From: Nitrospiraceae bacterium
GTDB taxonomy: Bacteria; Nitrospirota; Nitrospiria; Nitrospirales; Nitrospiraceae
Length of the DNA: 57,366 nucleotides
Assembly: GCA_037442105.1 (NCBI GenBank)
Contig: JBBIQV010000015.1
Span: 1 to 57,366 of the forward strand
Direction of reading: 5' to 3'
Each line of letters begins with the position of its first letter. Position 1 is the stretch's first letter. The notes beneath the pieces are model-generated. The model was given only the letters and a program-made list of their open reading frames with translations. It was not told where the DNA came from and did not search any database. This document shows, piece after piece, positions 150-51,611 of the stretch. The position numbers and the translations under genes are program-made.

Positions 150-737
150 TCAAAACAGCGAAGCGGTTTCTGGCATTTTAGGATAGAACAACAGCCCCTT
201 CTCGATCTTGGCGAAGGAGGTGAGGCGATGAAGGGTTGCCTGTTGAGTCGTCATGATATGCCGGACCTCCGACCCGTGCATCACCAACGCATCGGCAATC
301 AGCGACCGATGGCAGCGCCAGGGCACGGCCTCGGCGCACATGATCGCCACGCGGAAGGGGCGCGTCTCGGCGCGCCCGGGGTGGGCGGGTGAGAAAGATA
401 GCTTTCGGCTGTCAGCTATCAGCTCATCCAACGATTTCCGGAATTCATGAGTCTGCATATAGTCCGCATAGCCGCGGAAGCTCTCGTTCCGCCAGCCGGT
501 GTTCATCGAGTCTTTACTCGTTTTTCGCAAGCCACCGAGTCTGGCTGAATGCTGATAGCTGATGGCTGCATCAGCCAGGCTTCTGGCCAGCGCTTCCGTA
601 TTGAACTGCGGATTGTGCCGCGAACGGGGGATCGTGCGCACGTCCACAAGCTGCCGAATTCCGTGCGCGCGCAAGAGCGCAAGGAATTCCTCGATGGGAT
701 GAGTCGAATGGCCGATGGTCCAGAGAATGTGCGCCAT
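150..737 (-). CDS. DUF488-family protein
   Basis: Motifs TIGHSTH, LVDVRTIPRSRHNPQFN, LGGLR, AIMCAEAVPWRCHRSLIADAL. Start placed at MAHILWT (737). Carries a roughly 16-aa extra segment (see findings). Confidence 0.9.
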   Translation of the reverse strand: MAHILWTIGHSTHPIEEFLALLRAHGIRQLVDVRTIPRSRHNPQFNTEALARSLADAAISYQHSARLGGLRKTSKDSMNTGWRNESFRGYADYMQTHEFRKSLDELIADSRKLSFSPAHPGRAETRPFRVAIMCAEAVPWRCHRSLIADALVMHGSEVRHIMTTQQATLHRLTSFAKIEKGLLFYPKMPETASLF

Positions 738-808
738 CGCGTGGATATTCTGGCACAAGGCGAGAGGGGTTCGCTAATCGTTGACGGACGACCGGACGCA
801 AATAGCCC

Positions 809-841
809 TTGACATTATCACTGCCTACTAGTAGGTAGGTT
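809..841 (+). promoter_or_regulatory. Promoter of tetR with overlapping palindromic operator CCTACTAGTAGG (824-835)
   Basis: TTGACA at 809-814. Perfect 12-bp palindrome immediately upstream of the tetR ATG (847), the usual layout for TetR autoregulation. Confidence 0.65.
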
Positions 842-846
842 GCACA

Positions 847-1422
847 ATGACACAACCGGACACGAAGACGGCGATCCTTGACGCGGCCCAAGACCTCATC
901 CAGCGGGTCGGCGCGAATGCGATGAGCTATCAGCACATCAGCGAGGTCGTGGGGATTCGGAAGGCCAGCATCCATCACCACTTTCCCAGCAAGGAGACGC
1001 TCCTCAAAGAACTCATCGATCGCTATAGCCGGCAGTTTCTCGGTCTGGTCGATGACATTATCGCTTCGGATGTGGGGCCGGCGACCAAGCTGCGGCGGTA
1101 TGCGTCGTTGTTTGAGGCCACGCTCTCGGAAGGACGACAGAACAAGGCCTGTCTTTGCGGGATGTTGAGCGCCGAGGTGGAAGCTTTGGGGAGGGGCGCT
1201 GCCGCGGGCCTGCGCCGGTTCTATCGCGAGAACGAGCGACGATTGACCCTGATATTGGAGGAAGGCCAGCGCCGGAGGGAGTTCAGGTTCGAGGGCGAGC
1301 CTCGAACGATAGCCGCGCTGATCTTTCAACTACTGGAGGGCAGCATGTTGATTGCGCGGGCGGATGGAGGGGTGAAACGCTTTCGCGCCGTCACCGAACA
1401 GATGATGAAGTTGCTTCGCTGA
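847..1422 (+). CDS. TetR/AcrR family regulator (NemR/AcuR-like)
   Basis: N-terminal HTH (ILDAAQDLIQRVGANAMSYQHISEVVGIRKASIHHHFPSKE) and C-terminal CLCGML motif. Confidence 0.92.
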   Translation: MTQPDTKTAILDAAQDLIQRVGANAMSYQHISEVVGIRKASIHHHFPSKETLLKELIDRYSRQFLGLVDDIIASDVGPATKLRRYASLFEATLSEGRQNKACLCGMLSAEVEALGRGAAAGLRRFYRENERRLTLILEEGQRRREFRFEGEPRTIAALIFQLLEGSMLIARADGGVKRFRAVTEQMMKLLR

Positions 1423-1530
1423 TCCGCCGTCCGTCAAACCGGTTCATGTGTCGAGAGAAGGCAGCGAGTACTCGCGAGAAAGGCAACGGAGAGTTCACGT
1501 CAGGTCGAAGAGCCTGGAAAGGAGGCGGTT

Positions 1531-2142
1531 ATGAGACAGTTCATGTATTGCATGTTGGCAGCGGTCCTCTGTCTTAGCATGGCGACTGTGGCGATGGCGG
1601 GAGAGAAGGGACACAAGAAAGGTGGAGGCGGGAAAGATCTCAAATCCATGTCTCAAGAGGAACAGATCAAGGTGGCGTTGAGCGCCGCGCCTGCCTCTAT
1701 CGCCAAGGACGCCGGCGTCATGCTGCCGGGCGAAGACGGAAAATTGGTCGAGGTGAAGAAAGGGACCAACGGCTTCACCTGCATCCCCACCGTCAACAAC
1801 CGGCCCGATCCGGACCCCATGTGCTTCGATGCGGCGGTGGGTCAGTGGGTGGACGCGCTGGTCAATAAGAAGGACAAACCGGGCAACACCGTTCCCGGCA
1901 TTTCCTACATGGCTCGTGGAGGCTATCACTGGGAGAAAGACGGCAAAGTGCTGATGGACGAAGAGCCTGGCGCCAAGCTGGTGAAGGAGCCGCCCCATTG
2001 GATGATGATGTGGCCGTTCACTTCCCAGGAGACCAAATTACCGACTGTGCCCAATCCGTCCGGCGTGTGGATCATGTTTGACGGTACCCCGTTTGCGCAT
2101 CTGATGGTCCATCAAGATCCGAACAAGATGAAGGAGAAATAA
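1531..2142 (+). CDS. Secreted/periplasmic conserved hypothetical protein (Cys/His/Met motifs)
   Basis: Strong SD AAGGAGG, signal peptide ending AMA, motifs SAAP, GTNGFTC, PMC, GISYM, PPHWMM, AHLM. Confidence 0.8.
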   Translation: MRQFMYCMLAAVLCLSMATVAMAGEKGHKKGGGGKDLKSMSQEEQIKVALSAAPASIAKDAGVMLPGEDGKLVEVKKGTNGFTCIPTVNNRPDPDPMCFDAAVGQWVDALVNKKDKPGNTVPGISYMARGGYHWEKDGKVLMDEEPGAKLVKEPPHWMMMWPFTSQETKLPTVPNPSGVWIMFDGTPFAHLMVHQDPNKMKEK

Positions 2143-2151
2143 ACCGGTCGA

Positions 2152-2179
2152 GGGGCCGGGCGGTGTCTTGCCCGGCCTC
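2152..2179 (+). terminator. GC-rich hairpin after the 1531-2142 gene
   Basis: GGCCGGGC-N8-GCCCGGCC with a weak U-tail. Confidence 0.45.
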
Positions 2180-2204
2180 TTCCGCACAGAAGGGGTTTGA
2201 TGGA

Positions 2205-2270
2205 GGCGCCGCGCAGATCGGCGAGCTGGTCCAAAACGAAATACTTGAAACCGTTCTGCTCGGTGGGCAT
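2205..2270 (-). pseudogene. 5' fragment of a TfoX/Sxy-family gene
   Basis: ATG at 2270 gives MPTEQNGFKYFVLDQLADLRG, resembling TfoX N-termini. Similarity stops where the plus-strand cassette begins. Confidence 0.55.
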
Positions 2271-2278
2271 CGCGGGCC

Positions 2279-3139
2279 TCAGACCGGTTTTCTGGCCGAC
2301 ACGAACCGGACGGCGATGGGCAGGGCGACGGTCTTGCCCGATCTGTAGGTCTCAGCGGCCTGAACGATGCGCGTCTTGGCCTCAGTTTTCTGCTAGTCGG
2401 AGAGTTTCGCGAAGAGATTCTGAATCGGCGCGGCGATGTCCATCAGGCTTGCATAGTACTCCTCTCCGGAGGGAAACCGCACGTCGGCAATAAACTCTTC
2501 CTCGGCGATATTCGCCAATCCCGCCTGCCGCATCATGCCTGCCAGATCGCCCGACTTTGCCAGCCGAAAAATCCCCGGTGCTGCCGGATCGGGCGGCGGC
2601 AAGTCGATCAACGTTTTGATGACGTCCAAGGGAATACGGATATAGGGATTGTGGTCAGGCGATGACCACACGGCGGTTGCACAATACCCGCCTGGTTTCA
2701 GCACGCGTGTGATCTCTCGTGAGGCCGCGGGGATCTCCGGCAGAAACATCAGGCAGAAGCGACTGGTGACCGCCTCGAATGAGGCGGCCTCAAACGGGAA
2801 CGTGGTCACGTCACCGGTGCGAAAGATCACATTGGTGAGGCCCAGTCGTTGCGCTTTCCGCTCCGCTGCAGCGAGCATCGCTTCGGCGAGGTCGATCCCG
2901 ATGACGCTTCCCGATGAGCCGACCGTCTGTGCTGCGAGCAGCGCAGGATAGCCGGTGCCGGAGCCCAGATCCAGGACCCGGTGTCCCGAGCGCAACCGCG
3001 CGTCGGCGACAAGTCGATGATTGAGAAAGGCCATCTGCTCGTCGAAGAACCGGTCCCACTTCTCCCACCCGGCGGCGACGCGGTTCCAGTCCTGACGTTG
3101 GCCTTCGATGATCTGTTCCGCCATCTGCTGTTGTGTCAT
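2279..3139 (-). pseudogene. Class I SAM methyltransferase (UbiE/Methyltransf_11-like) with an internal in-frame TAG at 2393-2395
   Basis: VLDLGSGTG motif I. Reading through the TAG gives QKTEAKTRIVQAAETYRSGKTVALPIAVRFVSARKPV and a stop at 2279-2281, a typical methyltransferase C-terminal strand. Confidence 0.8.
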
Positions 3140-3191
3140 ACGTGTCCTTCTTACGAATGACGAATGACCAATGGCGGTTGACGTAATTCCC

Positions 3192-3373
3192 TTATCCGCC
3201 GCTCAACGCACAGACAATGTGCACATGATCGTTCTTCTGGAGTGGTGTCGTGAGCGGAAACGTCTGTTCGTCGTTGACAAAAATCCTGATGTGCGGCCTG
3301 ATGCGGTCCTGCTCCGTGATAATCCGAAACCGGATCGCGGGAAAGCGGTAGTCCAAGCCGTCCAGCACCTCGC
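3192..3373 (-). pseudogene. 3' fragment of MoaD/ThiS ubiquitin-like sulfur carrier
   Basis: Manual translation REVLDGLDYRFPAIRFRIITEQDRIRPHIRIFVNDEQ...VHIVCALSGG* with a C-terminal di-Gly. No in-frame start; the 5' end is replaced by an IS remnant. Confidence 0.8.
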
Positions 3374-3460
3374 GCTCGAAGCTTGGTCTGCCGCTTGTAA
3401 AGCTGATTGCGGGCGATACCGAGTTCGCGGGCGATCTCCGAGGCGGGCCGCCTCACCCTG
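3374..3460 (-). mobile_element. IS3-family OrfA (HTH) transposase remnant
   Basis: RPASEIARELGIARNQLYKRQTKL resembles HTH_Tnp_1. No OrfB or terminal repeats seen. Confidence 0.6.
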
Positions 3461-3670
3461 CCCCCCCCGATGTATGCCCCCCATTGAGGTGCGATGCCTC
3501 GGGGTGAGCCTGTGCTGAGGTGTTGTCGGTGGCTCGTCTCATTCGTGAAGGTTCGTGACCCCGCCACAACCTGGTCCGGCTGGAGCCATACATCCGTTTC
3601 GGCGAACCGGTCGTAGTGCAGGTGAAGGAAACGTCACAGGTCCCCATTCATTCACAGAAAGGAGTCATCC

Positions 3671-3952
3671 ATGAAATTCATGCTCACCTTCAGGCTGCCG
3701 TCGGATAAGGACAAACGAAACGAGGCTATTGCGCGATTCCAGAAGACGGGCGGGCAGCCGCCTCACGGAGCCAAACTGTTGGGACGTTGGACGCGGCTGG
3801 ATATGAGTCAGGTGTATGTGCTGGCAGAATCCGATGATCCGAAAGCGTTGGCCGGGTTTGCCATCGATTGGAGCGATCTCCTTGAAGTGGAGACGGCGCC
3901 GGTCATGGAAGACCAGGACTTGTCCGACGTGTTGAAGCGCGTCGCCAAGTAG
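3671..3952 (+). CDS. DUF3303-family protein
   Basis: MKFMLTF...ARFQKTGGQPPHGAKLLGRW...ESDDPKAL...WSDLLE..PV pattern; SD AAGGAG. Confidence 0.85.
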   Translation: MKFMLTFRLPSDKDKRNEAIARFQKTGGQPPHGAKLLGRWTRLDMSQVYVLAESDDPKALAGFAIDWSDLLEVETAPVMEDQDLSDVLKRVAK

Positions 3953-4048
3953 GTCCGGCTCGAGACGGGCGGCCCCAGGTGGAAAGGGGGCCGCCCTCCA
4001 GAACCCAGTCGGCCACCAGAATCACGAGAATGAGAGGGAGGAACGAGC

Positions 4049-5080
4049 ATGCGCATTCAGGCAATGGCCGCCAAAAGCCAAGGGGACGAATTGGCGCCCT
4101 GGACCTATGAGCCGCCTGCCCTTGGTCCCTTCGACTGTCTGCTGCGTGTTCTGGCTTGTGGTCTGTGCAGCAGCGACCTGCATATGATCGATAACCACTG
4201 GGCCATGTCCCGCTACCCGCTCGTGCCGGGACACGAAGTGGTCGGGGAGGTGGCGGACATCGGCTCGCGTGTCAGTCAGCTATCCGTCGGTGATCGGGTC
4301 GGCGTCGGGTGGCAGCGGTCAGCCTGCTTCCAGTGCCGCGATTGTACGAGAGGAACCGAGCACCTCTGTAACAAGGGCTACCAAGCCTTGCTCGCAGACG
4401 GCTATGGCGGCTTTGCGGAATATATGGTTGCGGACAGCCGGTTTTGTTTTCCCATCCCCGGCGGGCTTTCGGCCGACGTGGCCGGTCCGCTGCTCTGCGG
4501 GGGGATCACGGTCTACTCGGCCCTGCATGCCGCCGGCATGACCTCGGGTCAAGAGCCTCAAGAAATTGGGGTGATCGGGCTCGGCGGCCTCGGGCACCTG
4601 GCGATCCAGTTCGCAGCCAAGTCGGGGCATCGCGTGACCGTGTTCACGTCAAGCGAGGAGAAGGCCGCCGCCGCGACTCAGTTGGGCGCCCACCACACGA
4701 TCCTCACCCGACCGGACGGCCGTCCCGCCGCGCACTCGACTCGGCCTCTCGATCTCCTGATCAGCACGGTGCCGAGTCAGCTCCCGTGGGAGGCGTACGT
4801 CGAGAGAGTCCGGCCCGGCGGCGCGCTGACCTTCGTGGGCGTCCCCCCAGGGCTGGCCGCCCTTCCCCTGGCCGCCATGATCCTGCAGCGTCGTCGGTTG
4901 CTCACGAGCTCCATCGCCGGCCGCCCGATGATCCGGGAGACGCTGGAAACCGCCGCGCGCCTCGGGGTGAAGCCCACCATCGAGACCTTCCCGTTAGCCG
5001 AGGTCAACCGCGCCATCCGGCGGTTACGCGACAACCGGGTCCGCTACCGCGCGGTGCTGACGATCGAACAGCGACCATGA
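4049..5080 (+). CDS. Zn-dependent NAD(P)H alcohol dehydrogenase/aldehyde reductase (CAD/Ahr-like)
   Basis: CSSD, GHEVVG, structural Zn cysteines, PLLCGGITVY, GLGGLGH, RYRAVL. Confidence 0.92.
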   Translation: MRIQAMAAKSQGDELAPWTYEPPALGPFDCLLRVLACGLCSSDLHMIDNHWAMSRYPLVPGHEVVGEVADIGSRVSQLSVGDRVGVGWQRSACFQCRDCTRGTEHLCNKGYQALLADGYGGFAEYMVADSRFCFPIPGGLSADVAGPLLCGGITVYSALHAAGMTSGQEPQEIGVIGLGGLGHLAIQFAAKSGHRVTVFTSSEEKAAAATQLGAHHTILTRPDGRPAAHSTRPLDLLISTVPSQLPWEAYVERVRPGGALTFVGVPPGLAALPLAAMILQRRRLLTSSIAGRPMIRETLETAARLGVKPTIETFPLAEVNRAIRRLRDNRVRYRAVLTIEQRP

Positions 5081-6596: not shown

Positions 6597-6652
6597 GACA
6601 GGCGTTCCTATTGACCGATGACCAATGACCAATGACCAATGACTTCTCAATG

Positions 6653-9062: not shown

Positions 9063-9644
9063 TCACTCAAGAACCGAGAGCCCGGTCTCGACAATGTCTC
9101 GCATGGCTTCGGCCGGAGTCCCGGCTTTGTACATCACGATCACCCCTTGCATCATACCGGTGAGAAACCGGGCCAGCGCTCGCGGGTCTTGCCCCTTCTT
9201 CAACTCTGCTTGTTTCTTCGCGCGGACCAGCACCTTGTAATAGGCTTCTTCGATTCCCCCGAGCGCCCGCACCACCTTCTTCCCGATCTCCTTCTCGTGC
9301 GGCGAAAGTTCCATCGCGCTGTTGGCAATCAAGCAGCCTCTGCGCGTCCGGTCCGACAGCGCAAGCTCCAACATGCTGCGAATGGAGTGGCGAATGGCGT
9401 CAAGCGCGGGACCGGGACGATCCAGCAGCGACAAATGGTCGGTCATCATGCCCTGGCAATAGCGATCCAGGCAGGCGAGGAACAACTTCTGTTTGTCGCC
9501 GAACGTGTCGTAGAGCGAGCCGCGATTGATGTCCATCGCGGTCAGTAGGTCGTCGATGGAGGCGGCCTCATAGCCCTTGTGCCAGAAGACCTGCATGGCC
9601 TTGTCGAGCGCGTCGTCCGGATTGAATTCCTTGGGTCTCGCCAT
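9063..9644 (-). CDS. TetR family regulator (ComR/NemR-like)
   Basis: MARPKEF, FWHKGYEAAS, GSLYDTFGDK, GCLIANSAMEL. Confidence 0.93.
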   Translation of the reverse strand: MARPKEFNPDDALDKAMQVFWHKGYEAASIDDLLTAMDINRGSLYDTFGDKQKLFLACLDRYCQGMMTDHLSLLDRPGPALDAIRHSIRSMLELALSDRTRRGCLIANSAMELSPHEKEIGKKVVRALGGIEEAYYKVLVRAKKQAELKKGQDPRALARFLTGMMQGVIVMYKAGTPAEAMRDIVETGLSVLE

Positions 9645-9705
9645 CCCGGATTCCTCTCAACTCCTGCGTAACGCTTCACGTTTTACGGACTGATTATGTA
9701 ACACA

Positions 9706-9848: not shown

Positions 9849-11966
9849 TCACCGCAGGTGATCCACGTCGAAGGTAATGGGCGCTGAGAAGCCATTGCGG
9901 GTTGCGCCGAGAACAATTCTTACGGAAGTAGCATCCGATGGTGTCGTGTATTGAAACGGGAACGTTTGAAACCCGGGGGCAGAATGCTCTTGGCAGAGAG
10001 GGAACAGGTCTTGGTCGCGGATTCCGGAAGGGAGGCCATCACTTTTGAGGTAGCGTATGGTCACGAACACATGAGGACGCGTGGCTGAACAGGATCCGGA
10101 TGTCGAGTCGCCAGACCAGGCGAACCGCAGATTGGCGGTTGTGGTGTAAGCCGTGTTCGGGGACGCCTCAAGGATGGCGCTTGAGGCGATGATTCTAGCG
10201 TCCGCTCCGTTCCCCGTCGTCAGCCGCAGTACGTTCTGTCCTCGCGACGGGACCACTGGTTGGCCAGCTTCGCCGGCCAGGAAGTAACGGTTCGCCGTGC
10301 CGCTTCCATCGATCGTCCACTCGTCGGGCACTGTATCCAGATTGGCGTCACTCTCGAACGAGCCGTTTGGAATGGCAACAAGGTGGAATCCGCCCATGTC
10401 CATGACTTCTTTTTGAACGGGGTTGTAGACGAACTGCGTGCCTCGCCGTTTGACAGCATCGGCCTTGCCGGGGTCCAGATCTTCCGCGTTATCGATGTTG
10501 ACCCAATGCCAATATCCCCCACCGTCCACACCGTGTTTCTCCATGAGCGCAACGAGGCTCTCCAGCGCCCGTTCGGCCGGCCATGCTGATGTGACAGGCG
10601 GGAGAACTCCCATCTCCCCAGCCACTATTCGTGCGCCGTTGCCTTTTCCAACTGTTGCGAGCACTGCTTGCAATGTTTGGTCGGCCCACGTATGCGGTTC
10701 CACATCGGGCCCACAAGGGAGATTGCGGGCCGTAGAGCACTTAAAATGTTCGTAAAATGACAAAGCATAGGTACGTTCGCGATCGGGGATGCCCAGATCG
10801 TCAAAAATTTTCTTCAGCACGACGATCGGGCTCCATAGGTGGCGATCGGTCGCGTCCGGCCCCGCCGCCGGCTGACTGTCCAGGAAGAAGTCTCCGACAA
10901 CGGCTTCGGCGGACAATTTGCGCGAGGGAATTCCCAGCGAGAGAGCATAGCCGATAGCCCACCGAACATAATTGGCCGGCGCAGAGGCGGGGCCAAGCCA
11001 AAGAGGTGGTTCCGCTGGGACTCCACAAGCATCCCCTGTCCCATTGCCATCGGTATCTACCAGATGCGTCGTGCCGTTAAAAAGCACCAGATTGACTGCG
11101 GGGTGGTTCTTCACGATGTTGAGGATCGCTCCGAGCCATGCCTGCGAATTGGTCGGAGGCTGTTCCTCCATATGAGTATCCGTAAAGCCCAGGATGACCC
11201 GCATCCCTTTTTGCCGCACAAGATCCAAAAACACCGGGAGGTTGGCGAGTTCCGTCTGAGTGGGCTGGGGCCATCGGAACCCTAAAACCGGTGGGATGTT
11301 GCAACCGGGCGGCACGAATCCTCCCGAAATAAAGACTGGATCAGCAGTGCGAAGCTCAATTGTAATTGCATTGACACCCATCTCACGCATCTTGTCGAGC
11401 TGGAGAGCTACCTCATCTTTCACGGTTCCTCCAACAACTGAGTCGAAAGTAGAGAAATCCTGGATGACCTGACCGGGCCAATATTCGGAAGCCCAACCGC
11501 GCCGTTCGAACTGGGTCCAGAGGCCCCGGAAAGGCACGAGGAACCTGCCGATTTCTACCGGTTTCCCGACCGGGGTGAACATGGCAGTGACGGAGGCATC
11601 AGTCTTCATCGTCATGGTGCAGGAACCTGCCCCGCTACATGCTCCTCTCCATCCACTAAACACCGAATCAGAGGCCGGGAGTGGTGTCAATGAGACGACC
11701 GTGTTCTCACGATACGTCTGCTGGCAAGTGCTTGGGCAGTATGTTGATCCGGCATCGCTCGTGATTGTTCCACTGCCAGATCCGATTCTGGCGAGAGTCA
11801 GCGTGAATGTCGGGGATGGAGGAGGGGATGTTCCGCCGCTCGATCCTCCGTCGCTGCTGCCTCCGGCAGTACAGGCTTGAGCAATCGAAACCCACAGAAG
11901 AGCAACGAGGAGAGAGATGTATCGACGGCGGAAAGCCATTTGCTGCATCCTCGCGTAAAGGGGCAC
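9849..11966 (-). CDS. Secreted multidomain protein: signal + Gly/Ser/Pro linker + divergent InlB B-repeat + GH-A-like TIM barrel + CBM4/9-like domain
   Basis: GSGSGTITS..C...C...FSGWRGAC repeat; MREMGVNAITI, IVAGEMG, GGGYWHW barrel motifs; NGSFE...FDVD CBM pattern. The start may be 11939. Confidence 0.7.
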   Translation of the reverse strand: MPLYARMQQMAFRRRYISLLVALLWVSIAQACTAGGSSDGGSSGGTSPPPSPTFTLTLARIGSGSGTITSDAGSTYCPSTCQQTYRENTVVSLTPLPASDSVFSGWRGACSGAGSCTMTMKTDASVTAMFTPVGKPVEIGRFLVPFRGLWTQFERRGWASEYWPGQVIQDFSTFDSVVGGTVKDEVALQLDKMREMGVNAITIELRTADPVFISGGFVPPGCNIPPVLGFRWPQPTQTELANLPVFLDLVRQKGMRVILGFTDTHMEEQPPTNSQAWLGAILNIVKNHPAVNLVLFNGTTHLVDTDGNGTGDACGVPAEPPLWLGPASAPANYVRWAIGYALSLGIPSRKLSAEAVVGDFFLDSQPAAGPDATDRHLWSPIVVLKKIFDDLGIPDRERTYALSFYEHFKCSTARNLPCGPDVEPHTWADQTLQAVLATVGKGNGARIVAGEMGVLPPVTSAWPAERALESLVALMEKHGVDGGGYWHWVNIDNAEDLDPGKADAVKRRGTQFVYNPVQKEVMDMGGFHLVAIPNGSFESDANLDTVPDEWTIDGSGTANRYFLAGEAGQPVVPSRGQNVLRLTTGNGADARIIASSAILEASPNTAYTTTANLRFAWSGDSTSGSCSATRPHVFVTIRYLKSDGLPSGIRDQDLFPLCQEHSAPGFQTFPFQYTTPSDATSVRIVLGATRNGFSAPITFDVDHLR

Positions 11967-12786: not shown

Positions 12787-13737
12787 ATGGCTGACAAGAA
12801 GATCATCGCGGTTGTAGGGGCCACCGGTGCGCAGGGTGGCGGATTAGTCCGCGCGATCATGAACGGTACGGGCAGCGGCTTCACGGCGCGCGCGCTTACA
12901 CGCGACGTGAATTCGGACAAAGCCAAGGCGCTCGCCAAGCTGGGGGCTGAGATAGTCGCGGCCAATTTGGACGACGCCGAAAGCGTGAAACGAGCATTCG
13001 CTGGTGCGTACGGGGCCTTCTGCCTGACGAATTTTTGGGAACACTTCTCGCCGGAGAAAGAATTTGCTCAGGCGAAGACCATGGCAGAGGCGGCGAAACG
13101 GACCGATCTCCGGCACGTCGTCTGGTCTACCCTCGAAGATACGCGCCAATGGATTCCACTCAGCGACAACCGCATGCCCACCCTCATGGGCAAGTACAAA
13201 GTGCCGCACTTCGACGCCAAAGGCGAGGCCAACAAGGTGTTCACCGAGCTGGGTGTGCCTACCACGTTCCTGCTCACATCATTTTACTGGGACAACATGA
13301 TTCACTTCGGCATGGGGCCGAAGAAAGGCCCGGACGGCAAGCTGGCGTTTACCCTGCCTATGGGCGACAAAAAGCTCCCGGGCATTGCGGCCGAGGACAT
13401 CGGCAAGTGCGCCCTCGGCATCTTCAAGAAGGGCCGCGAGTTCATCGGCAAGACTGTGGGCATCGCCGGCGAACACTTGACCGGCGCGCAGATGGCGGCT
13501 GCGCTCGCCAGAGCGATCGGGCAAGAGGTGCGCTATAACGATGTGCCGCCGGAGGTCTATCGAGGTTTTGGATTCCCCGGGGCTGAGGATCTCGGCAACA
13601 TGTTTCAGTTCAAGCGCGACTTCGAGCAGGTCTTCTGCGGGGCGCGGAACCTGGCCGTGGCGCGTTCTCTCAACCCATCGCTCCAAACGTTTGAGGCGTG
13701 GTTGGCCCGGAACAAGCACCGCATCCCGCTTGACTAG
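12787..13737 (+). CDS. NmrA/HSCARG family protein
   Basis: VVGATGAQGG, VPHFDAKGE, EDIG; SD GGAGG. Confidence 0.93.
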   Translation: MADKKIIAVVGATGAQGGGLVRAIMNGTGSGFTARALTRDVNSDKAKALAKLGAEIVAANLDDAESVKRAFAGAYGAFCLTNFWEHFSPEKEFAQAKTMAEAAKRTDLRHVVWSTLEDTRQWIPLSDNRMPTLMGKYKVPHFDAKGEANKVFTELGVPTTFLLTSFYWDNMIHFGMGPKKGPDGKLAFTLPMGDKKLPGIAAEDIGKCALGIFKKGREFIGKTVGIAGEHLTGAQMAAALARAIGQEVRYNDVPPEVYRGFGFPGAEDLGNMFQFKRDFEQVFCGARNLAVARSLNPSLQTFEAWLARNKHRIPLD

Positions 13738-13903
13738 CGCGCATTATTCATGAGCACTTCTGCTGCAAACACCAAGGAGCGAGTAGCCGGTAACGAACAG
13801 CGAGCAGCGAGCAGCTTGTCGATCAACATTTCTGAGCTATGTGCTATGAGCTATTCGCTGCCGGCTTCGGCCGCGACGAACCGTCATGAATAATGCGCGC
13901 TAG
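13734..13903. mobile_element. 170-bp MITE-like element with 20-bp perfect terminal inverted repeats
   Basis: CTAGCGCGCATTATTCATGA (13734-13753) and its reverse complement (13884-13903); non-coding interior with inverted heptamer arrays. Confidence 0.8.
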
Positions 13904-18342: not shown

Positions 18343-18431
18343 ACGCATTATTCTACCCTGAGTTTTTTGCTATTGGCTGTTCGCTATTCGCTCAGCTCAC
18401 AGCTCCGCGCGACGAACCGTCATGAATAATG
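18340..18431. mobile_element. Second, degenerate copy of the MITE-like element
   Basis: Left end TAGACGCATTATTC; 18408-18431 is identical over 24 nt to 13872-13895. Confidence 0.7.
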
Positions 18432-18500: not shown

Positions 18501-19574
18501 ATGAATCGCCAACAACTCTTCTCCATCGGTTTTTTTGCGGTTCTTGCCCTGCTGCTCTATCAGATCGGGCTGATGTTCCTGCCGTTTCTGTTCCCGGTGC
18601 TCTGGGCGGTGATCCTTGCGCATCTGGCATTCCCCGCCTACGTGAAGTTGGCGGCCTGGCTGCGCGGGCGCGAGACCATGGCGGCGGCTACCTTGACGAT
18701 CGGGGTGATGGCGCTCGTTGTGGTGCCGTTGATTCTGGTTGGTGTGCTGCTTGTGCGGGAAGCGAGTTCAGCGGAACAGGCGATCCGGCACTGGGTGGCG
18801 GCGGGCGGGGTTCAGCAGGTCTCGGACTATCTAGCTCGTATGCCGGGGGCGACAGGCCTTCTGCAGGAACTGACCGGCCGGGCGGTCATGAAACAAGTCA
18901 ACCTCGAACAGTTCGTGCTGTCCAGCGCCAAGACGTTGAGCGAGTTTCTGGTGAACGAGTTGAGCGCTCTGGTGCGCAACGTGTTTCTTCTGATGGCCGA
19001 TTTTCTCGTGATGATCTTCACGCTGTTTTTCTTGTTCCGGGACGGGCGGCGCTGGCTGGACTCGTTGTACGACCTGCTTCCGTTGGAAGCATCCCACAAG
19101 GAGAAGATCTTTGTGCGCCTGGATCGTACGATCCGCGCGGTGGTGAAAGGCCTGTTACTTACGGCCGTTGTCCAAGGATTGTTGGCCGGTGCGGCCTATG
19201 CGTTGCTGGGTGTCCCCTTCCCCGTTGTGCTGACGGCTCTCACGATGCTGCTTGCGCCGCTGCCGTTCGGCGGAACGGCGCTGGTGTGGGGGCCGGCAGC
19301 GGTGTACTTGTTTCTGGTGGGACCGGCGGGGAAAGGCCTTGTGCTGTTGGCGTGGGGCGCCGGCGTGGTGTCGATGGTCGATCAGATTCTGAAACCCCTC
19401 TTCATCGGGCAAGGGGCGCAAATCAATGTGCTGCTCTTGACCTTCAGTGTGCTGGGAGGACTGGCCCTCTATGGCATCATCGGACTCTTTCTCGGGCCGG
19501 TCCTCATCGGCCTCTTCTTGACAGCGATCCAGATCTATCGCGAAGAGTACCACGCGCCAGAGAACGGCAAATAG
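18501..19574 (+). CDS. AI-2E family transporter
   Basis: Multi-TM; LFFLFRDG, DQILKPLFIG, GIIGLFLGP. Confidence 0.92.
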   Translation: MNRQQLFSIGFFAVLALLLYQIGLMFLPFLFPVLWAVILAHLAFPAYVKLAAWLRGRETMAAATLTIGVMALVVVPLILVGVLLVREASSAEQAIRHWVAAGGVQQVSDYLARMPGATGLLQELTGRAVMKQVNLEQFVLSSAKTLSEFLVNELSALVRNVFLLMADFLVMIFTLFFLFRDGRRWLDSLYDLLPLEASHKEKIFVRLDRTIRAVVKGLLLTAVVQGLLAGAAYALLGVPFPVVLTALTMLLAPLPFGGTALVWGPAAVYLFLVGPAGKGLVLLAWGAGVVSMVDQILKPLFIGQGAQINVLLLTFSVLGGLALYGIIGLFLGPVLIGLFLTAIQIYREEYHAPENGK

Positions 19575-19657
19575 CGAATAGCTCATAGCTACATCAGCTA
19601 GTAGCGAGTAGCTAATAGCCATTAGCTCAGAGCTACCCGCTGCTCGCTATTGGCTAT
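19571..19657. repeat. Inverted degenerate heptamer arrays between convergent genes
   Basis: ATAGCGA ATAGCTC ... TAGCGAG TAGCTAA TAGCCAT TAGCTCA / GAGCTAC CCGCTGC TCGCTAT TGGCTAT. Confidence 0.8.
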
Positions 19658-19667
19658 TTTCTGGCTG

Positions 19668-25168: not shown

Positions 25169-25234
25169 GCGTCAGCAATGGGTTAGTGGCGAGAGGCTAG
25201 GGTTCAGCAGGTTCATACAGAGGAGGCTGGAGCC

Positions 25235-30312: not shown

Positions 30313-30319
30313 GGAAAGA

Positions 30320-30386
30320 AGCGATCAGCGGTCAGCTATCAGCTCAGGAATAGGTTGCCGTAACTGATCGCTGACGGCTGACAGCT
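30320..30386. repeat. Inverted heptamer arrays in the fabH-fabD spacer
   Basis: AGCGATC AGCGGTC AGCTATC AGCT ... ACTGATC GCTGACG GCTGACA GCT. Confidence 0.8.
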
Positions 30387-30443
30387 CCCCGAAACTTTTT
30401 CCCGTTGACATTCAAAACAATTTCTACGATATCTAACTCCGCT

Positions 30444-31382: not shown

Positions 31383-31435
31383 AAGTTAAAAAGTCGAAGG
31401 TCCGAAGACTTGACGACCTTCGACGGGGGTTGTGG

Positions 31436-32187: not shown

Positions 32188-32275
32188 TAGGCAAGGGGCG
32201 AATGGGCAAGGGGCAATAGGTTGAGGATAGGGCTCGGCGAAGCCCTCTCGCCCCTCGCCCCATGCCTCTAGCCTA
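32188..32275. repeat. Inverted heptamer arrays in the fabG-acpP spacer
   Basis: GGCAAGG GGCGAATG GGCAAGG GGCAATA ... TCTCGCC CCTCGCC CCATGCC TCTAGCC, around an inner AGGGCT/AGCCCT hairpin. Confidence 0.8.
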
Positions 32276-37520: not shown

Positions 37521-37707
37521 TGCCGTTCGCTGCAGTAGAAAGGTCAATGTCGGCAGGCTCCTAACAAGGGGGTATTCAAGGTTGGAGTAGAGAACCGTGA
37601 AATGACGAGAGGCATCGTAGCCAACGGGAGAAGGGTCTGTCAAGAAAGCCGGCTTCTTGGCTGCTCGCCTTACCCCTCACGCCTAACCCCTTACCGATTT
37701 CCAGGCG

Positions 37708-37737: not shown

Positions 37738-37754
37738 GCACTGCTTTTGCAGGA

Positions 37755-37828
37755 AGCTGTCAGCCTTCAGCTTTCAGCAAATTCTCTGCGTCGCTCGGCT
37801 GAATGCTGACTGCTGAGAGCAGAGAGCT
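37755..37828. repeat. Inverted heptamer arrays in the folD 5' UTR
   Basis: AGCTGTC AGCCTTC AGCTTTC AGC ... GCTGAAT GCTGACT GCTGAGA GCAGAGA GCT. Confidence 0.8.
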
Positions 37829-41831: not shown

Positions 41832-42248
41832 TTAAGGGTATTTGGCTTCGATGATGCTGCGAAGCCCACCCCGGGCGGTGAACTCACCGGTGACGATTGC
41901 CCATACAGGGTGGCAGGCGTTGATCACGTCCTGCAGAATGCGGTTGACCGCGTTCTCGTAAAAGATGCCGAGGTTCCGGTAGGCATGGATATACATTTTT
42001 AGCGATTTGAGTTCGAGGCAGGTCTGATCCGGCATGTATCGCAGCGTGATCGTGCCAAAGTCCGGGAGGCCGGTTTTGGGACAGATGGCTGTGTATTCGG
42101 GGATCTCGATGGTGATCTGGTACCCCTTGTACTGGTTCGGCCAGGTTTCGATTGCTGGAAGCTCGGCGGTGATCCCGCTTACGGCATGTTGTTCGTTGTA
42201 GCCCAGCTTGGTACGCTGCTGTTTCTTGGTCTCCCCCCTATCCCTCAC
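41832..42248 (-). CDS. queF: preQ0 reductase (type I, unimodular)
   Basis: EYTAICPKTGLPDF, ELKSLKMY, ARGG. Confidence 0.95.
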   Translation of the reverse strand: MRDRGETKKQQRTKLGYNEQHAVSGITAELPAIETWPNQYKGYQITIEIPEYTAICPKTGLPDFGTITLRYMPDQTCLELKSLKMYIHAYRNLGIFYENAVNRILQDVINACHPVWAIVTGEFTARGGLRSIIEAKYP

Positions 42249-42268
42249 CCTTCACCCCTCACGGTTTA

Positions 42269-45794: not shown

Positions 45795-45800
45795 GTACGA

Positions 45801-45879
45801 GCGAACAGCCGGTAGCGGGCAGCCGATACAGAGGAATCCGGAGATATCGCTTTCAGCTGTTAGCTGCCAGCTATTAGCT
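45801..45879. repeat. Inverted heptamer arrays in the forD-forA spacer
   Basis: GCGAACA GCCGGTA GCGGGCA GCCGATA ... GCTTTCA GCTGTTA GCTGCCA GCTATTA GCT. Confidence 0.8.
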
Positions 45880-47305: not shown

Positions 47306-47310
47306 GCGCT

Positions 47311-47559
47311 TCACCCCTGGAGGTCGTCCTGAATCAGTTCTTCGTTCTCCGGCATACCGTGGGCGATGAACTTCGCGTAGGAGAGGTAGATCGCGCTGCT
47401 GTCTCGCATGGCTCTGGCGCCGAGCGTCATGCGATCGAGCAGTTTCGCGTCACTCGATTCCGACGCACGGAGGGACAACACGTGGTCTTCCAGCACCTTA
47501 GTATATTGTGCCATTGCCTGCTCGACTTGCAGGTAGGCTTGCATAATGGGGTCCGTCAT
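47311..47559 (-). CDS. Small helical hypothetical protein
   Basis: SD GAGGAG before MTDPIMQAY; amphipathic helices. Confidence 0.75.
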   Translation of the reverse strand: MTDPIMQAYLQVEQAMAQYTKVLEDHVLSLRASESSDAKLLDRMTLGARAMRDSSAIYLSYAKFIAHGMPENEELIQDDLQG

Positions 47560-47620
47560 GGCGGTTACTCCTCTTGAGGCGTAACATACAGCACGGCATT
47601 CGTAAGGGTCAACCGCACAC

Positions 47621-48835
47621 GTGCGACGCATCCACGCCCTCTCCGAGACAGTGACGCAGATTCTTTCCGAGAAGCTTGGGCTTCAGTCGGTGTCCACACC
47701 CACGTCTCTTCCGTCGGCAATCTGTCAAGGTGTCGAGGCGCTCTCCAGATTATTTACGCGAGAGCGGGCCGGATTAGCTTCATCCTATCTGGAGGAGGCC
47801 TCCCTGCGCCGTGCTTACCTCAGCTACTATCTGCCTGTGAATGTGGCAAAGGTACAGGCCTTACTCGACGAAATTCGGCCGGAATTATTCGATGTTGATC
47901 CATCGCGGCCGCTCAACGTGTTGGACTTGGGAAGCGGGCCAGGCACGGCTGCACTGGGCCTACGCGATTGGGTGTGTAGGACGCCGGCTATGTCAACCAG
48001 ATCCGTGCACTGCGTCGTCGTGGATCGGTCGCCACAGGCTTTGCGAGAAGGTGAATGGCTCTGGAACGCTTACACCAGGCTGGTGAGTCTGAGAGCTGAT
48101 CGATTGGTCTTGTCCGACGGCGATCTTGAGCGAGTGGCACCATCGACGCTCGTCCGGGCCAGCGGAGGCGGCTCGTATGATGTCATTATCGCGGCCAATG
48201 TGTTGAGTGAACTCTTCCTCTCATCACGAGACCCAATTCAGCAACGCGCGGCGCTCGTTCGGGATTGTCTTGGAATCTTACGGGAGAATGGCTCGTTGAT
48301 CCTGATCGAACCGGCCCTTCGCGATGCGTCACGCGATCTGCACCGGGTGCGGGATTGGCTCCTCAAGGAGAAGATCTGCACCGTCTACAGCCCCTGTCTG
48401 CACGAACGGCCCTGTCCAGCCCTGGTGAAGGACGATGATTGGTGCCATGAAGACCGTCCCTGGTGTGCCCCTGTGCTGGTGCGAGCGATCGACGAACAAG
48501 TCGGATTCGTGAAAGACGCGCTCAAGTTCTCCTATCTCATTCTCCGAAAGGACGAGCGCACGATTATAGCGAGAGAGCCAAGCCTGTATCGCGTCGTGAG
48601 CGAGCTGCGTGAGATGAAGGGAGAAAAACGAGCGTGGTTGTGTCATGAGCAGGGTAGATCGGAAGTGGGCCGGCTCGACCGCCTGCGGTCCCCAGCGAAT
48701 GCCGCATTGGACCAATGGCACCGGGGCGCGATCGTGAGAGTCGAAGACATCGTCCGCAAAGACATTAAAGGTCGGCTCGCGATGGTTGGGAGGATTCCCG
48801 CCTCGGCGGCGGTCGAGGTCGTCAGGCCGGTGTGA
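47621..48835 (+). CDS. Rsm22-family SAM methyltransferase
   Basis: AYLSYYLP, VLDLGSGPGT, LILIEP, SPCLHERPCP..WCH, KFSYL. Confidence 0.88.
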   Translation: MRRIHALSETVTQILSEKLGLQSVSTPTSLPSAICQGVEALSRLFTRERAGLASSYLEEASLRRAYLSYYLPVNVAKVQALLDEIRPELFDVDPSRPLNVLDLGSGPGTAALGLRDWVCRTPAMSTRSVHCVVVDRSPQALREGEWLWNAYTRLVSLRADRLVLSDGDLERVAPSTLVRASGGGSYDVIIAANVLSELFLSSRDPIQQRAALVRDCLGILRENGSLILIEPALRDASRDLHRVRDWLLKEKICTVYSPCLHERPCPALVKDDDWCHEDRPWCAPVLVRAIDEQVGFVKDALKFSYLILRKDERTIIAREPSLYRVVSELREMKGEKRAWLCHEQGRSEVGRLDRLRSPANAALDQWHRGAIVRVEDIVRKDIKGRLAMVGRIPASAAVEVVRPV

Positions 48836-48841
48836 AGGGAC

Positions 48842-49036
48842 TTAATCCGCTTCCGGCTCGGAATTGCCGTGCCGGTGCGTGACCTTGTCTTCGTCGAACA
48901 GCTCGGCCATTTCGTCCGCAATCATGTCCCGGTCGTCGGGCACGGAGACAAGCGGGATTTCCTTCCGAGCCTTCGAGGCTGGTTTAGCCGGCGGGGGCGC
49001 CGATTCTTTGGACTGAGGATGTTCAGGAGCGACCAT
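48842..49036 (-). CDS. Small acidic hypothetical protein (64 aa)
   Basis: MVAPEH...; extended -10 TG-TATAGT lies 6 nt before the ATG. Confidence 0.55.
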   Translation of the reverse strand: MVAPEHPQSKESAPPPAKPASKARKEIPLVSVPDDRDMIADEMAELFDEDKVTHRHGNSEPEAD

Positions 49037-49069
49037 GCGGTGACTATACCATACAAGCGGAGGCATCGT

Positions 49070-49270
49070 CTTTGCCTCTTCGATCACGATGTCCACTTCG
49101 GCCCTGGAAGCCAGCCGCCAGTAGAGCATGTCCGGCCTGGGGCGAAGGCCTTCCCGCCAGGCCAGGAGATCGCTGACCACGAGGGTTTCTGGAAAGGGGC
49201 CGACCAGTCCACTTTTCTCCAAGATCCGTAGCGGTGTCGATGCCGGCTAGGTTTGCAAGAAGGCGTCTGA
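49070..49270 (-). pseudogene. Fragment of an AAA ATPase/DUF4143 gene
   Basis: LLANLAGID, then a frameshift, then ETLVVSDLLAW...LYWRLASRAEVDIVIE, matching the DUF4143 YWR...EVD motif. Confidence 0.65.
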
Positions 49271-49348
49271 CTTCTCGCTTCCTTGTTCCACTCAAGTTTG
49301 CCAGTGGCAGGATCATCTCAGTTGCGGTATTGTTACTCCCCTATGGCC

Positions 49349-49435
49349 AGGCTATGGGTATGAGGCGTGGGCGATAGGCATAAGTGGTATCAGGAATCTT
49401 CCCTCTGGCTACCAGCCTCGCGCCGCTCGCCTCCA
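49349..49435. repeat. Inverted heptamer arrays upstream of hisH
   Basis: GGCTATG GGTATGA GGCGTG GGCGATA GGCATA ... CCCTCTG GCTACCA GCCTCGC GCCGCTC GCCTCCA. Confidence 0.7.
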
Positions 49436-49445
49436 CGAAGCGGAT

Positions 49446-50078
49446 ATGATTGCGATTATCGACTACGGCATGGGCAACCTCTGTAGTGTGTTCAAGGCCT
49501 TCGAGGCGGTAGGGCACCAGGCGGTGGTGACGCGCGACCCGTGTGTGATCGGGAATGCGAGTCACGTCGTGTTGCCCGGCGTCGGAGCCTTTGGCGATTG
49601 CATGGCCAACTTGGACCGTTATGGGTTGATTGATTCTATCCGGCAAGCAATCGAGTCAGGGAAGCCATTCCTTGGCATCTGTCTGGGGCTCCAGCTTTTG
49701 TTCACCGAGAGCGAAGAGTTCGGGGTCCATGAGGGACTCGGCGTGATTCCGGGAAAAGTTCGGCGGTTTGCCTTCGAAATATCTGGGCGGAACGGGCAAA
49801 CCACGCTGAAGATTCCACATATGGGCTGGAATGAAATCGAAATCCTTCGGCCTGCTCCGATCTTCGAGGGAGTCAAGACCGGCACGCACTGCTATTTCGT
49901 ACACTCGTATTACGTCGAGCCGGTCGATCAGGACATTGTCGCCAGTGTGACCGACTACGGCGGGCGATTTGTGTCGAGCGTGTGGCGGGATAACGTTGTG
50001 GCCTGCCAGTTTCACCCGGAGAAAAGCCAGGCGGTGGGCTTGCGGCTGGTGAAGAATTTCGGGGATTGGCGTGTGTAA
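49446..50078 (+). CDS. hisH: Imidazole glycerol phosphate synthase glutaminase subunit
   Basis: DYGMGN, LPGVGAF, GICLG, PHMGWN, QFHPEKS. Confidence 0.97.
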   Translation: MIAIIDYGMGNLCSVFKAFEAVGHQAVVTRDPCVIGNASHVVLPGVGAFGDCMANLDRYGLIDSIRQAIESGKPFLGICLGLQLLFTESEEFGVHEGLGVIPGKVRRFAFEISGRNGQTTLKIPHMGWNEIEILRPAPIFEGVKTGTHCYFVHSYYVEPVDQDIVASVTDYGGRFVSSVWRDNVVACQFHPEKSQAVGLRLVKNFGDWRV

Positions 50079-50811
50079 CCATACGCCTCGCGCACTCGTA
50101 ATGTGTGTCCTTATGCCGGTGCTGCTGGCTGGCTGTAGTGGTGCAAAAGTCACGACCAAGGCCTCGTCGCAGTTGCAGAAATATCGTGTGCAGCGGATTG
50201 CCCTCCTCCCCTTCGAAGCGCTGGCGACGCCGCAGGCCGTGGAGGTGACGGGCATTGGACTCCAGGTGCCGGAAGGTGCGCAGCGCTCGAATATTTCGAT
50301 TGCCGTGCCGCCTGTCCACGAACAGGCGATTCGATCAACTATGACGGTTCCATCATTCGCGGCGGAGAAGGTCATGCAACTGGTCTTGAAACGCCTGCAG
50401 CCGAAGGCCGGGCTCGTGGTGCTATCGCCGGAAGAAAGCAGCCGGGCGTTGCGGGAGGTGGAAGGGCAAACTGCCGGTGCGACGCGCGAGGTCGTGGCAT
50501 CCAAAGTTGCCGCGCGGCTTTCAGTTGATGCCACCCTAGTGGGGCGTGTGTTGGTCTATCAAGAGCGAGTCGGGAGTCGGTTGGGTGCGAGTCCGCCGGC
50601 GACGGTGGGATTCGAAGTCAAGCTGATCGCGGCGGACGGGTTCCTGCTATGGGAAGGTAATTACTACGAGAGGCAGCGGCCGATGACAGAGGATCTGATG
50701 GGATTCTTCGCGCATGGGTTCGGGTTCGTCACCGCGGACGCGTTAGCCGCGTATGGGGCCGAGCAACTGGCTAAGGAATTTCCGTTCGGGCAATCGGGCG
50801 GGAGCCAATGA
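50071..50811 (+). CDS. Lipoprotein, hypothetical (CsgG/LpoB-like fold possible)
   Basis: Lipobox LAGC; RIALLPFE. Confidence 0.75.
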   Translation: MCNHTPRALVMCVLMPVLLAGCSGAKVTTKASSQLQKYRVQRIALLPFEALATPQAVEVTGIGLQVPEGAQRSNISIAVPPVHEQAIRSTMTVPSFAAEKVMQLVLKRLQPKAGLVVLSPEESSRALREVEGQTAGATREVVASKVAARLSVDATLVGRVLVYQERVGSRLGASPPATVGFEVKLIAADGFLLWEGNYYERQRPMTEDLMGFFAHGFGFVTADALAAYGAEQLAKEFPFGQSGGSQ

Positions 50812-50815
50812 TCGC

Positions 50816-51562
50816 ATGCTTGTGATTCCAGCCATTGATCTCAAGGACGGTCGCTGCGTGCGTCTCCGCCAGGGGGACATGTCGGCTGAGACGGTTTATT
50901 CCGAGGACGTGCCCTCGGTCGCCGGCCGGTGGCTGCAGCAAGGCGCCAGCCTGATTCATGTCGTGGACCTCAATGGCGCAGTGGATGGGGAGCCTCGGAA
51001 TCTCCGCGAGATTCAGTCGATCATCAAGACCGTCAGCGTCAAGGTGCAGGTCGGCGGGGGGATTCGCAGCATCGACACGGTGCGTCGCTACCTGACCGCC
51101 GGCGTCTCGCGTGTCGTGCTCGGCACGGCAGCGCTGACGGATCGCAGGTTGCTGATACAGGCCTGCACGGAATTTCCTCGCCGCATTCTCCTCGGACTTG
51201 ATGCCCGCGAGGGCACAGTGGCGGTGAAAGGTTGGACAGCGGTCTCGGACACGAAGGCGATCGACCTGCTGAAGGAACTCGCCGGGTATGACTTGGGTGC
51301 GGTGATCTATACGGATATCGCTCGCGATGGCATGTTGGAGGGGCCCAACATCGGCGCGTTGCGCGAAGTGGTGGAGCGGTCGTCGTTCCCGGTGATTGCG
51401 TCTGGGGGGATCACGCGGATAGAAGACCTGCGCGCGATTCGATCTCTCGGCCCCCGCATCGAAGGAGCCATCGTCGGCAAGGCGCTCTACGACGGCAAAC
51501 TGAGCCTGCCAGATGCTATGAAGGCGGCGTCGGGGCAGCAGGCTATAGGCCATGGGCTATAG
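50816..51562 (+). CDS. hisA: ProFAR isomerase
   Basis: [39 protein letters not shown]. Confidence 0.97.
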
Positions 51563-51611
51563 GCGAGAGGAAACAGACAGCTTTCTTCCCTACTGCCTAC
51601 CTCGGGCCTAG
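51534..51611. repeat. Heptamer array overlapping the hisA 3' end, with a short inverted arm
   Basis: GGCAGCA GGCTATA GGCCATG GGCTATA GGCGAGA ... CCCTACT GCCTACC. Confidence 0.75.

Follow-up and report, generated by a model that had tools for sequence, protein, structure and literature searches.

Contig JBBIQV010000015.1 of a Nitrospiraceae bacterium (assembly GCA_037442105.1) carries, scattered among its genes, short arrays of degenerate units with a seven-nucleotide period. The question raised by this locus is what these arrays are and how they came to lie where they do. The window analysed here is the whole stretch of 57,366 nucleotides, which is contig C15 of a 2.81 Mb genome (62 contigs, 87% complete). 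The answer that we favour, and consider reasonably probable, is that the inverted pairs of arrays are non-autonomous partners of cassettes in which arms of the same kind enclose a gene for a four-helix-bundle protein (PF05635), and that this protein probably spreads the arms cognate to it.

Heptamer arms and their inverted pairs

Counting as a locus any stretch with lag-7 repetition of 11 or more bases in 14, we found 20 loci in the window against 1.4 in locally shuffled DNA, and 566 across the genome against 63 and 68 in shuffled sequence. Lag 14 is enriched along with lag 7, and the remaining lags not divisible by 3 are close to background. An earlier note on the window had listed 15 loci and named such an enrichment beforehand as a check; the enrichment is there, and Tandem Repeats Finder gives a period of 7 for 11 of these loci.

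Each 7-nt unit consists of a family-specific 5-base core and two free bases. Three to six such heptamers make up an arm, and at least eight families, differing in their cores, share one geometry. Core positions of the TCAGC family are 93-99% fixed, in part owing to the way the scan was built, and all 16 dinucleotides are represented at the free positions. Adenine-specific mutagenesis was considered as the source of the free positions and rejected, since by inspection the cores hold A on both strands. Requiring three units in each arm, we obtained 229 strict pairs genome-wide, with a median spacer of 19 nt and with four or five units in 318 of their 458 arms; 260 pairs were found when spacers of up to 700 nt were allowed, some of the long RGGC pairs being due to chance. 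The arms have a polarity: at distances of up to 150 nt, left-then-right and right-then-left arrangements stand at 56:1 for TCAGC, 20:0 for TGATG, 12:0 for AAATG, 19:1 for CGTCA, 9:0 for RGGC and 82:10 for AYAGC. Genes were called genome-wide with a simple model of our own, which gave 2718 genes with approximate start positions. The genes flanking a pair are co-directional for 206 of 238 intergenic pairs, compared with 1272 of 1698 junctions (p 4e-6), and the upstream arm starts no more than 14 nt behind a stop codon, or overlaps it, in 134 of 182 cases.

The elements of the window are listed below, with the strand where one was assigned and with gene names taken from Pfam and NCBIfam scans. 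The congener mentioned is G001, the only one, with proteins 85% identical and 1.23 of about 3.5 Mb compared.

401-424: left arm, TCAGC family, in frame in the DUF488 gene (150-737, minus strand)
544-569: TCAGC-family right arm pairing with 401-424, likewise in frame in DUF488 and without an indel relative to 29 orthologues
3153-3174, minus strand: single arm, CGTCA/GGTCA family, just upstream of the methyltransferase gene 2393-3139
6610-6643, minus strand: single arm, GGTCA family
9669-9687, minus strand: single arm, CGTGA family, upstream of the TetR gene 9063-9644
13737-13900: TA-flanked miniature inverted-repeat transposable element (MITE) with 14-bp inverted ends, bearing an AYAGC pair (13762-13815 and 13833-13861)
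18343-18430: decayed copy of the same TA-flanked MITE with a single AYAGC right arm (18362-18394)
19564-19664: compound AYAGC pair at the convergent junction of the AI-2E transporter gene and the Tll0287-like gene
25174-25205, plus strand: weak RGGC-like single arm between bolA and the glutaredoxin gene, under all detection thresholds
30318-30388, plus strand: TCAGC pair just after the fabH stop codon, upstream of a fabD promoter-like sequence
31391-31422, plus strand: short AAGTC pair at fabD-fabG; the congener has a CGTGA pair at the same junction
32188-32275, plus strand: RGGC pair at fabG-acpP, absent in the congener
37668-37695: single GTGAG-family arm in the divergent region upstream of folD
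37753-37827, plus strand: TCAGC pair directly upstream of folD
42231-42263, minus strand: single GTGAG-family arm upstream of queF, overlapping the predicted queF start
45801-45878, plus strand: AYAGC pair between two 2-oxoacid:ferredoxin oxidoreductase genes (forD-forA of the earlier note)
49349-49433, plus strand: RGGC pair directly upstream of hisH
51534-51611, plus strand: RGGC pair at hisA-hisF, its left arm read in frame as a C-terminal extension of HisA

The earlier description of these loci as mostly arm, spacer and inverted arm holds for nine of the 15, which are pairs (401 with 544-569, 13779/13834, 19571, 30320, 32188, 37755, 45801, 49349 and 51534); the other six are single arms (3153, 6614, 18367, 25174, 37667 and 42235), and the weak one at 25174 was picked up by no scan. 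The pair 31391-31422 and the single arm 9669-9687 come in addition to the 15, and the partner arm 544-569 had not been listed either. The placement at junctions inside operons that had been proposed needs correcting for some loci: the 401/544 pair is in frame inside the DUF488 coding sequence, locus 19571 lies between convergent genes, and 37667/37755 lie between divergent ones. Three accessory inserts had been described as free of arms. One weak three-unit match, 10940-10965, falls inside the gene-bearing insert 9849-11966 and another within dnaG (53985-54003), both probably by chance. An Rfam scan of the window returned a tRNA only, with no family at the arm loci.

Could these be ordinary MITEs or slippage repeats, moved by the transposase of an insertion sequence of the genome? 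The TA-flanked MITE family, about 100-370 nt long, is represented genome-wide by about 29 inverted-end pairs; 11 copies contain AYAGC arm pairs, some sharing spacers, and two copies are cleanly absent in the congener. The copy at 13737-13900 has near-identical copies on contigs C8 and C10. Unit numbers, moreover, differ by multiples of 7 between the congeners. Yet the MITE accounts for 11 of the 260 pairs. Among 136 spacers compared, all are unique apart from a subset of AYAGC copies; cross-matches occur almost only among these, several of them inside the separate MITE, which is unlike a MITE population, and the other families share no spacers. Adjacent TCAGC units are identical in 15 of 219 steps against 9% expected, and the likeness of neighbouring units lies at or below expectation in four of six families and is about equal to it in two. 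Neighbouring units are thus no more alike than chance, which excludes an origin by slippage, as the earlier note had maintained. Its companion statement, that these are not copies of one MITE, agrees with the unique spacers, although 13779/13834 and 18367 do ride in the MITE. Flanking 5-6-mers show a small excess (80 against 60.5 and 23 against 14.7, of 229 pairs with MITE-borne copies included), with no fixed length or position that would mark a target duplication. With at least eight families of different cores in one geometry, this explanation was already disfavoured and we give it very little credence. An IS1380 fragment considered as partner of the MITE was rejected, its downstream end being without the MITE inverted repeat, and no transposase was found to go with this MITE.

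Four-helix-bundle cassettes within cognate arms

The genome contains five PF05635/TIGR02436 genes, at C1:75646, C1:114200, C2:4582, C2:12013 and C2:17995, all above both curated cut-offs and none of them in the window. All five are bracketed by inverted arms, each of another family (GTGAG, TCAGC, AYAGC, TGATG and AAATG). Like all loci of the window, the five cassettes lie among or in protein-coding genes, none in a 16S or 23S rRNA gene. A PF05635 match is present in 98 of 121 genomes of the bacterial family. Among the best-scoring 134 of 327 such matches, matched inverted periodic arms flank 102 loci, compared with 23 (maximum 33) when flanks are swapped, and all 114 upstream genes with a hit are co-directional with the cassette. 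The link of arms to four-helix-bundle genes, which the earlier note had offered, is thereby borne out. For GxxExxY genes, the second cargo named there, the 87% complete genome gives no PF13366 match. In some clades the arms look 8- or 9-periodic (L066, L068, L078, L178, L181, L186, L193, L197 and L427). One filled cassette stands directly downstream of the rpoD orthologue in G049 (L092); rpoD of the window occupies 55422-57227, and the window has the start of a tRNA gene at 57322.

The cargo protein shows proportions of non-synonymous and synonymous differences (pN and pS) of ~0.2 and ~0.78 in three clades. Its predicted fold is that of the five-chain structures 2GSC and 2RLD, the latter being BT_0352 of Bacteroides thetaiotaomicron, and resembles Avd (4DWL, TM 0.81); the protein is predicted to be a pentamer. 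The match to the Avd model NF033474 has an E-value of 2e-5, below the cut-off of that model, and identity to Avd is about 10%.

The protein clades track the arm families. A quick tree was built on 119 columns from 130 proteins, four short ones among the 134 being left out; an automatic arm label is absent for 50 of the 134 loci. In this tree clades go with one arm family or with closely related cores, and several clades do so at two to four junctions. Three junctions have the TCAGC/TCAGT clade, and at least four have the GTGAG/GTGAA clade. At one junction two distant protein clades are found, with either TGATG/GTGAC arms or RGGC arms.

The abundance of the arms follows the cognate gene for five of the seven gene-bearing families when this genome is compared with the congener. 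The densities per Mb are 69 vs 5.7 for AYAGC, 16 vs 2.4 for TGATG and 11 vs 0.8 for AAATK, and the relation is reversed for the two families whose genes are found in the congener, with 3.6 vs 35 for TGAGT and 0.7 vs 6.5 for the 8-mer CATTG. A control with reversed cores is uninformative for TGAGT and high for GTRAG. Over the 121 genomes, in which kin are not independent, the median number of TCAGC triple-unit matches is 51.5 in the 10 genomes with the cognate clade (among them one with a broken gene and three with TCAGT arms) and 5 in the 111 without it; at least 60 matches are found in 5 of the former and 6 of the latter, four of which are 99-100% complete.

Turnover at shared junctions and in protein loops

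Comparison with the congener shows that the arm pairs come and go at shared sites. We kept 482 syntenic junctions, dropping 15 long ones of 497, and scored occupancy with a script that gives 0.1% false positives on shuffled sequence. Both genomes are occupied at 21 junctions, only one of them at 38 and 18, and neither at 405 (odds ratio 12, p 3e-11). Presence thus differs at 56 of the 77 occupied junctions, and where both are occupied the family differs in 13 of 21 cases by the script and in 18 of 21 by eye. An occupied site often exceeds its empty orthologue by 50-90 nt (for instance 128 vs 50, 120 vs 60 and 139 vs 62 nt). Unrelated families, even one of period 8, replace each other without alignable intermediates; at the junction of the 45801 pair, the congener has an 8-base-period pair of another family. 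Cassettes are swapped as well. The congener has two cargo genes, one with TGAGT arms and one with 8-base CATTG arms, and the latter occupies the junction of the AAATG cassette of this genome: the flanking proteins are 84% and 80% identical, the cargo proteins 39%, and the arms differ in both family and period.

More distant relatives extend this to junctions of the window. At hisA-hisF, arms are visible by eye in 9 of 19 members of the bacterial family, drawn from five or more arm families and in one case nested; the others have short spacers. At fabH-fabD the TCAGC pair is kept across many genera, with cores kept and with free bases and spacers drifted, and some relatives have other arm families at the same site. 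Between this pair and fabD, at 30400-30435, a promoter-like stretch shows much stronger conservation across genera than the spacer of the element does. In six relatives (L304, L315, L207 and L212-L214) a further gene of ~0.9 kb separates fabH from fabD, and in three of the six an arm pair of another family precedes it.

The earlier note had suggested that the arrays are empty sites or scars of a gene-cassette system. Sixteen junctions that are filled in relatives are syntenic and unfilled here; the script flags 11 of them (background 398 of 2092), and by eye 9 of 16 carry clear gene-less arms, all of another family than the cassette of the relative. The first half of the suggestion thus has genome-wide support, though no window junction was found filled; the second is not, because an empty pair usually of another family than the relative's cassette is no simple scar of excision. 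The idea that the spacers are remnants of cargo genes was not confirmed either: a pattern noticed post hoc (10 of 35 against 1 of 35 mirrored) gave p 0.66 with a weight matrix, and 11 of 12 anchored comparisons were not significant.

Several arm pairs are in-frame inserts in predicted proteins. In a phosphatidylglycerol-lysyltransferase-domain protein, one loop measures 33-34 residues in 10 of 25 orthologues. In 11 others, arms belonging to at least five families extend it in frame, and in the remaining 4 it is longer but has no clear arms. Since less length is gained than the element itself amounts to, native codons appear to have been replaced. The linker of a cobyrinate-diamide-synthase-type protein holds GTGAG-type arms in 9 of 25 orthologues; in L457, L458, L460 and L462 a different, C/G-rich palindromic repeat stands there instead, and this hot spot also attracts other repeat classes. 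Further in-frame pairs are present in predicted proteins at C9:84459, C11:74166, C2:140923, C2:143920 and C2:3245, two of the five in receiver-domain loops. The DUF488 arms differ from the orthologues by substitutions only, without an indel; they occur in 1 of 30 sequences, and the orthologues already have near-matches. Beside the left arm, at 356-400, lies a 15-codon in-frame insert absent from 29 orthologues. Sequence resembling it, rich in GC, is found at fabD-fabG of G079 (L045), and the insert may for this reason be a piece of another repeat family.

These observations bear on an explanation in which only the cassette moves between lineages. The gene-less pairs would then be binding sites that arise in place from adequate matches, under selection for a role after transcription or in chromosome organisation, and the arrival of a new protein clade would lead to their being rewritten. 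A similar idea, with an unnamed protein binding TAACTGA repeats, was put forward by MacGregor in 2015 (PMC4679880). The DUF488 arms, with their near-matches in orthologues, fit such sites well, and so do the unique spacers, the kept cores and drifting free bases at fabH-fabD, the reuse of the same sites and the dependence of density on the cognate gene. The greater length of occupied junctions and the growth of loops by whole codons nevertheless point to insertion, and neither the exchange of unrelated families without intermediates nor the nesting of elements of two families is what evolution in place would leave. Variable presence at most occupied junctions would also be poor for a conserved regulon. 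We regard this explanation as unlikely.

Alternatively, the pairs could be mRNA stem-loops for processing or stabilisation within operons, cut by RNase III as in the intervening sequences of rRNA, with the gene as a passenger. Such a role would suit their position between co-directional genes and close behind stop codons, and RNase III cuts an element of Coxiella in which heptamers accompany a gene of this family (PMC4990558). Folding of the RNA of nine window loci gave z-scores from -0.57 to -4.09, six of the nine being at or below -2.29 and so folding better than shuffled sequence; the folds are short helices interrupted by small loops. The free positions tell against it. In six families those of partner arms are no more complementary than those of swapped partners, and G-U is not favoured on the transcribed strand (254 G-U against 315 A-C oppositions). 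The transcript carries 32 left and 33 right single arms genome-wide, which rules out the strand bias hinted at by six window loci. An apparent avoidance of pairing in TCAGC vanished once partners were swapped within transcript orientation. With free bases under no selection for pairing, the RNA hairpins proposed in the earlier note lack support. In coding loops, stem-loops of this kind would mean a cut mRNA, and the match of protein clade to core would be left unexplained; the position behind stop codons, for its part, follows from tolerance alone. We consider this account quite improbable as the origin of the pairs, which may still have a secondary effect on RNA.

A model of spread and its place among known systems

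We return to the explanation outlined at the start, in which gene-less pairs depend on the cassettes. Under this model the pentamer would bind its own arm family with about one unit per subunit, and an enzyme acting in trans would move the element by way of a single-stranded RNA or DNA hairpin. Landing would be guided by short core matches, and a short native stretch or a resident element would be replaced and not pushed aside. Elements would survive mainly where insertion is tolerated, which would account for their position just behind stop codons and in flexible loops. Families persist after loss of the cognate gene and can hitch-hike in an unrelated MITE.

Several observations weigh against this model. 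Since no two elements outside AYAGC share a spacer, recent copying is not visible, and the spacers of gene-less pairs are not demonstrably cargo-gene remnants. The 87% complete genome yields no mover linked to the arms: its three Y1 transposase (PF01797) matches are not bracketed by arms, and its sole reverse-transcriptase match (C14:992-1852, apparently cut at the 5' end) is neither bracketed nor on a cassette contig. At orthologues of the window junctions, where small genes between the arms might have been expected, no four-helix-bundle gene was found: 53 fab, fol, for and his loci of relatives hold no PF05635-like match, and no hisA-hisF or fabG-acpP junction (29 relatives each) is long enough for a cargo gene. 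Protein clade and insertion site are confounded in many clades, and the clade-core match was read from the tree by inspection. The TCAGC and GTRAG arms are common in the congener without a cognate gene (49 vs 27 and 12 vs 20 per Mb, this genome first), and none was found for SGTCA in this genome or GTTTC in the congener. At least 80 TCAGC matches are present in four genomes of 99-100% completeness that lack the cognate clade, and only 11-12 in three whose gene of that clade is intact. Finally, insertion alone does not explain the DUF488 arms, a single case that favours rewriting in place. As a separate observation, a long DNA-methylase-like open reading frame (ORF) at C38:23651-27295 contains a Y1-transposase-like segment in frame.

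A bolder and decidedly tentative version, which we think possible without expecting it, makes these transposase-free elements governed by a protein-repeat code: each clade of Avd-like pentamers would read its own 5-base core, one heptamer per subunit. The hairpin would be single-stranded, with a gap at every seventh base pair, and a recruited reverse transcriptase or host recombination enzyme would write the element over core matches and over rival families. Turnover of rival families at shared operon junctions and in shared protein loops would follow, bacterial genomes would owe their excess of heptamer repeats to such elements, and a programmable system for inserting small cargo would be at hand.

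The preferred model, in which a four-helix-bundle protein spreads its cognate arms, connects the abundance of 7-base intergenic repeats in bacteria with the function of the widespread S23p/four-helix-bundle family. If it is true, repeats propagate without a transposase, and in nitrifiers they shape operon junctions and lengthen core proteins by added peptides; the frequency of 7-base repeats in bacteria would then have an explanation. The genome and its congener constitute a test set for it, with seven cognate protein-arm pairs, a swapped cassette, and junctions and loops at which families replace each other.

Among known systems, the palindromic elements of Rickettsia also lie in frame in genes and add peptides to protein loops; they are longer and non-periodic, and are not known to have a cognate four-helix-bundle gene. 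In systems of repetitive extragenic palindromic doublets forming hairpins (REPINs) and their associated tyrosine transposases (RAYTs), the RAYT gene is itself flanked by its repeats. The present elements resemble REPIN-RAYT systems (10.1101/2022.05.22.493013, PMC8049555) in having a gene-less intergenic population of inverted repeats, one single-copy cognate gene per family and long persistence. Arm abundance goes with the cognate gene in five of seven families when the two congeners are compared and tends to do so among the 121 genomes, but clear exceptions exist. The elements differ from REPIN-RAYT in that the cognate gene encodes a four-helix bundle without a transposase domain, while the Y1 transposases are unbracketed, and in their periodic heptamer arms with free positions and without shared spacers outside the AYAGC family.

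The ORF-bearing intervening sequence of 23S rRNA has an S23p gene, in Coxiella with tandem heptamers upstream, and is cut by RNase III (PMC4990558). With it the cassettes share the protein family (S23p/PF05635/TIGR02436), bracketing by inverted repeats, a sporadic distribution and, in the Coxiella case, tandem heptamers upstream of the gene. Unlike it, they lie between or in protein-coding genes, have hundreds of gene-less pairs beside them, and have arm families that match protein clades. An S23p-family ORF inside terminal inverted repeats is true of the filled cassettes and not of the gene-less loci in the window. With Avd of diversity-generating retroelements, five subunits of which grip an RNA stem-loop through flipped-out bases (bioRxiv 2023.10.23.563531), the cargo protein shares the fold and the predicted pentamer; the low identity separates the two, and the neighbours of the cassettes are ordinary genes, with no reverse transcriptase, template or variable repeats beside them.

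The anatomy of the arm pairs is partly in print already. Published accounts describe heptamer pairs in Xanthomonas with fixed and free positions, mostly four units and 70-75 inverted pairs, favouring co-directional junctions and stop codons (PMC4692102), paired hepta- and octanucleotide sites at variable distance in Geobacter metallireducens (PMC2700814; Geobacter multicopy sites also in PMC2996986), and TAACTGA repeats overlapping gene ends in Beggiatoaceae (PMC4679880). There they were read as G-quadruplexes, IHF/HU sites or regulator sites (PMC4692102, PMC2700814, PMC4679880), and the passages concerned name no four-helix-bundle gene; in PMC4679880, the one of the three searched for these terms, four helix, IVP and S23 are absent. 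In the literature covered, with subscription journals and supplements outside the coverage, we found no paper joining a PF05635 gene to dispersed heptamer arms. The contributions of this analysis are the turnover between congeners at shared sites, a reciprocal test of density with its exceptions, in-frame hot spots in protein loops and the finding of no selection for pairing. The system works like REPIN-RAYT and is built like the ORF-bearing intervening sequence, and it departs from each in a defining feature.

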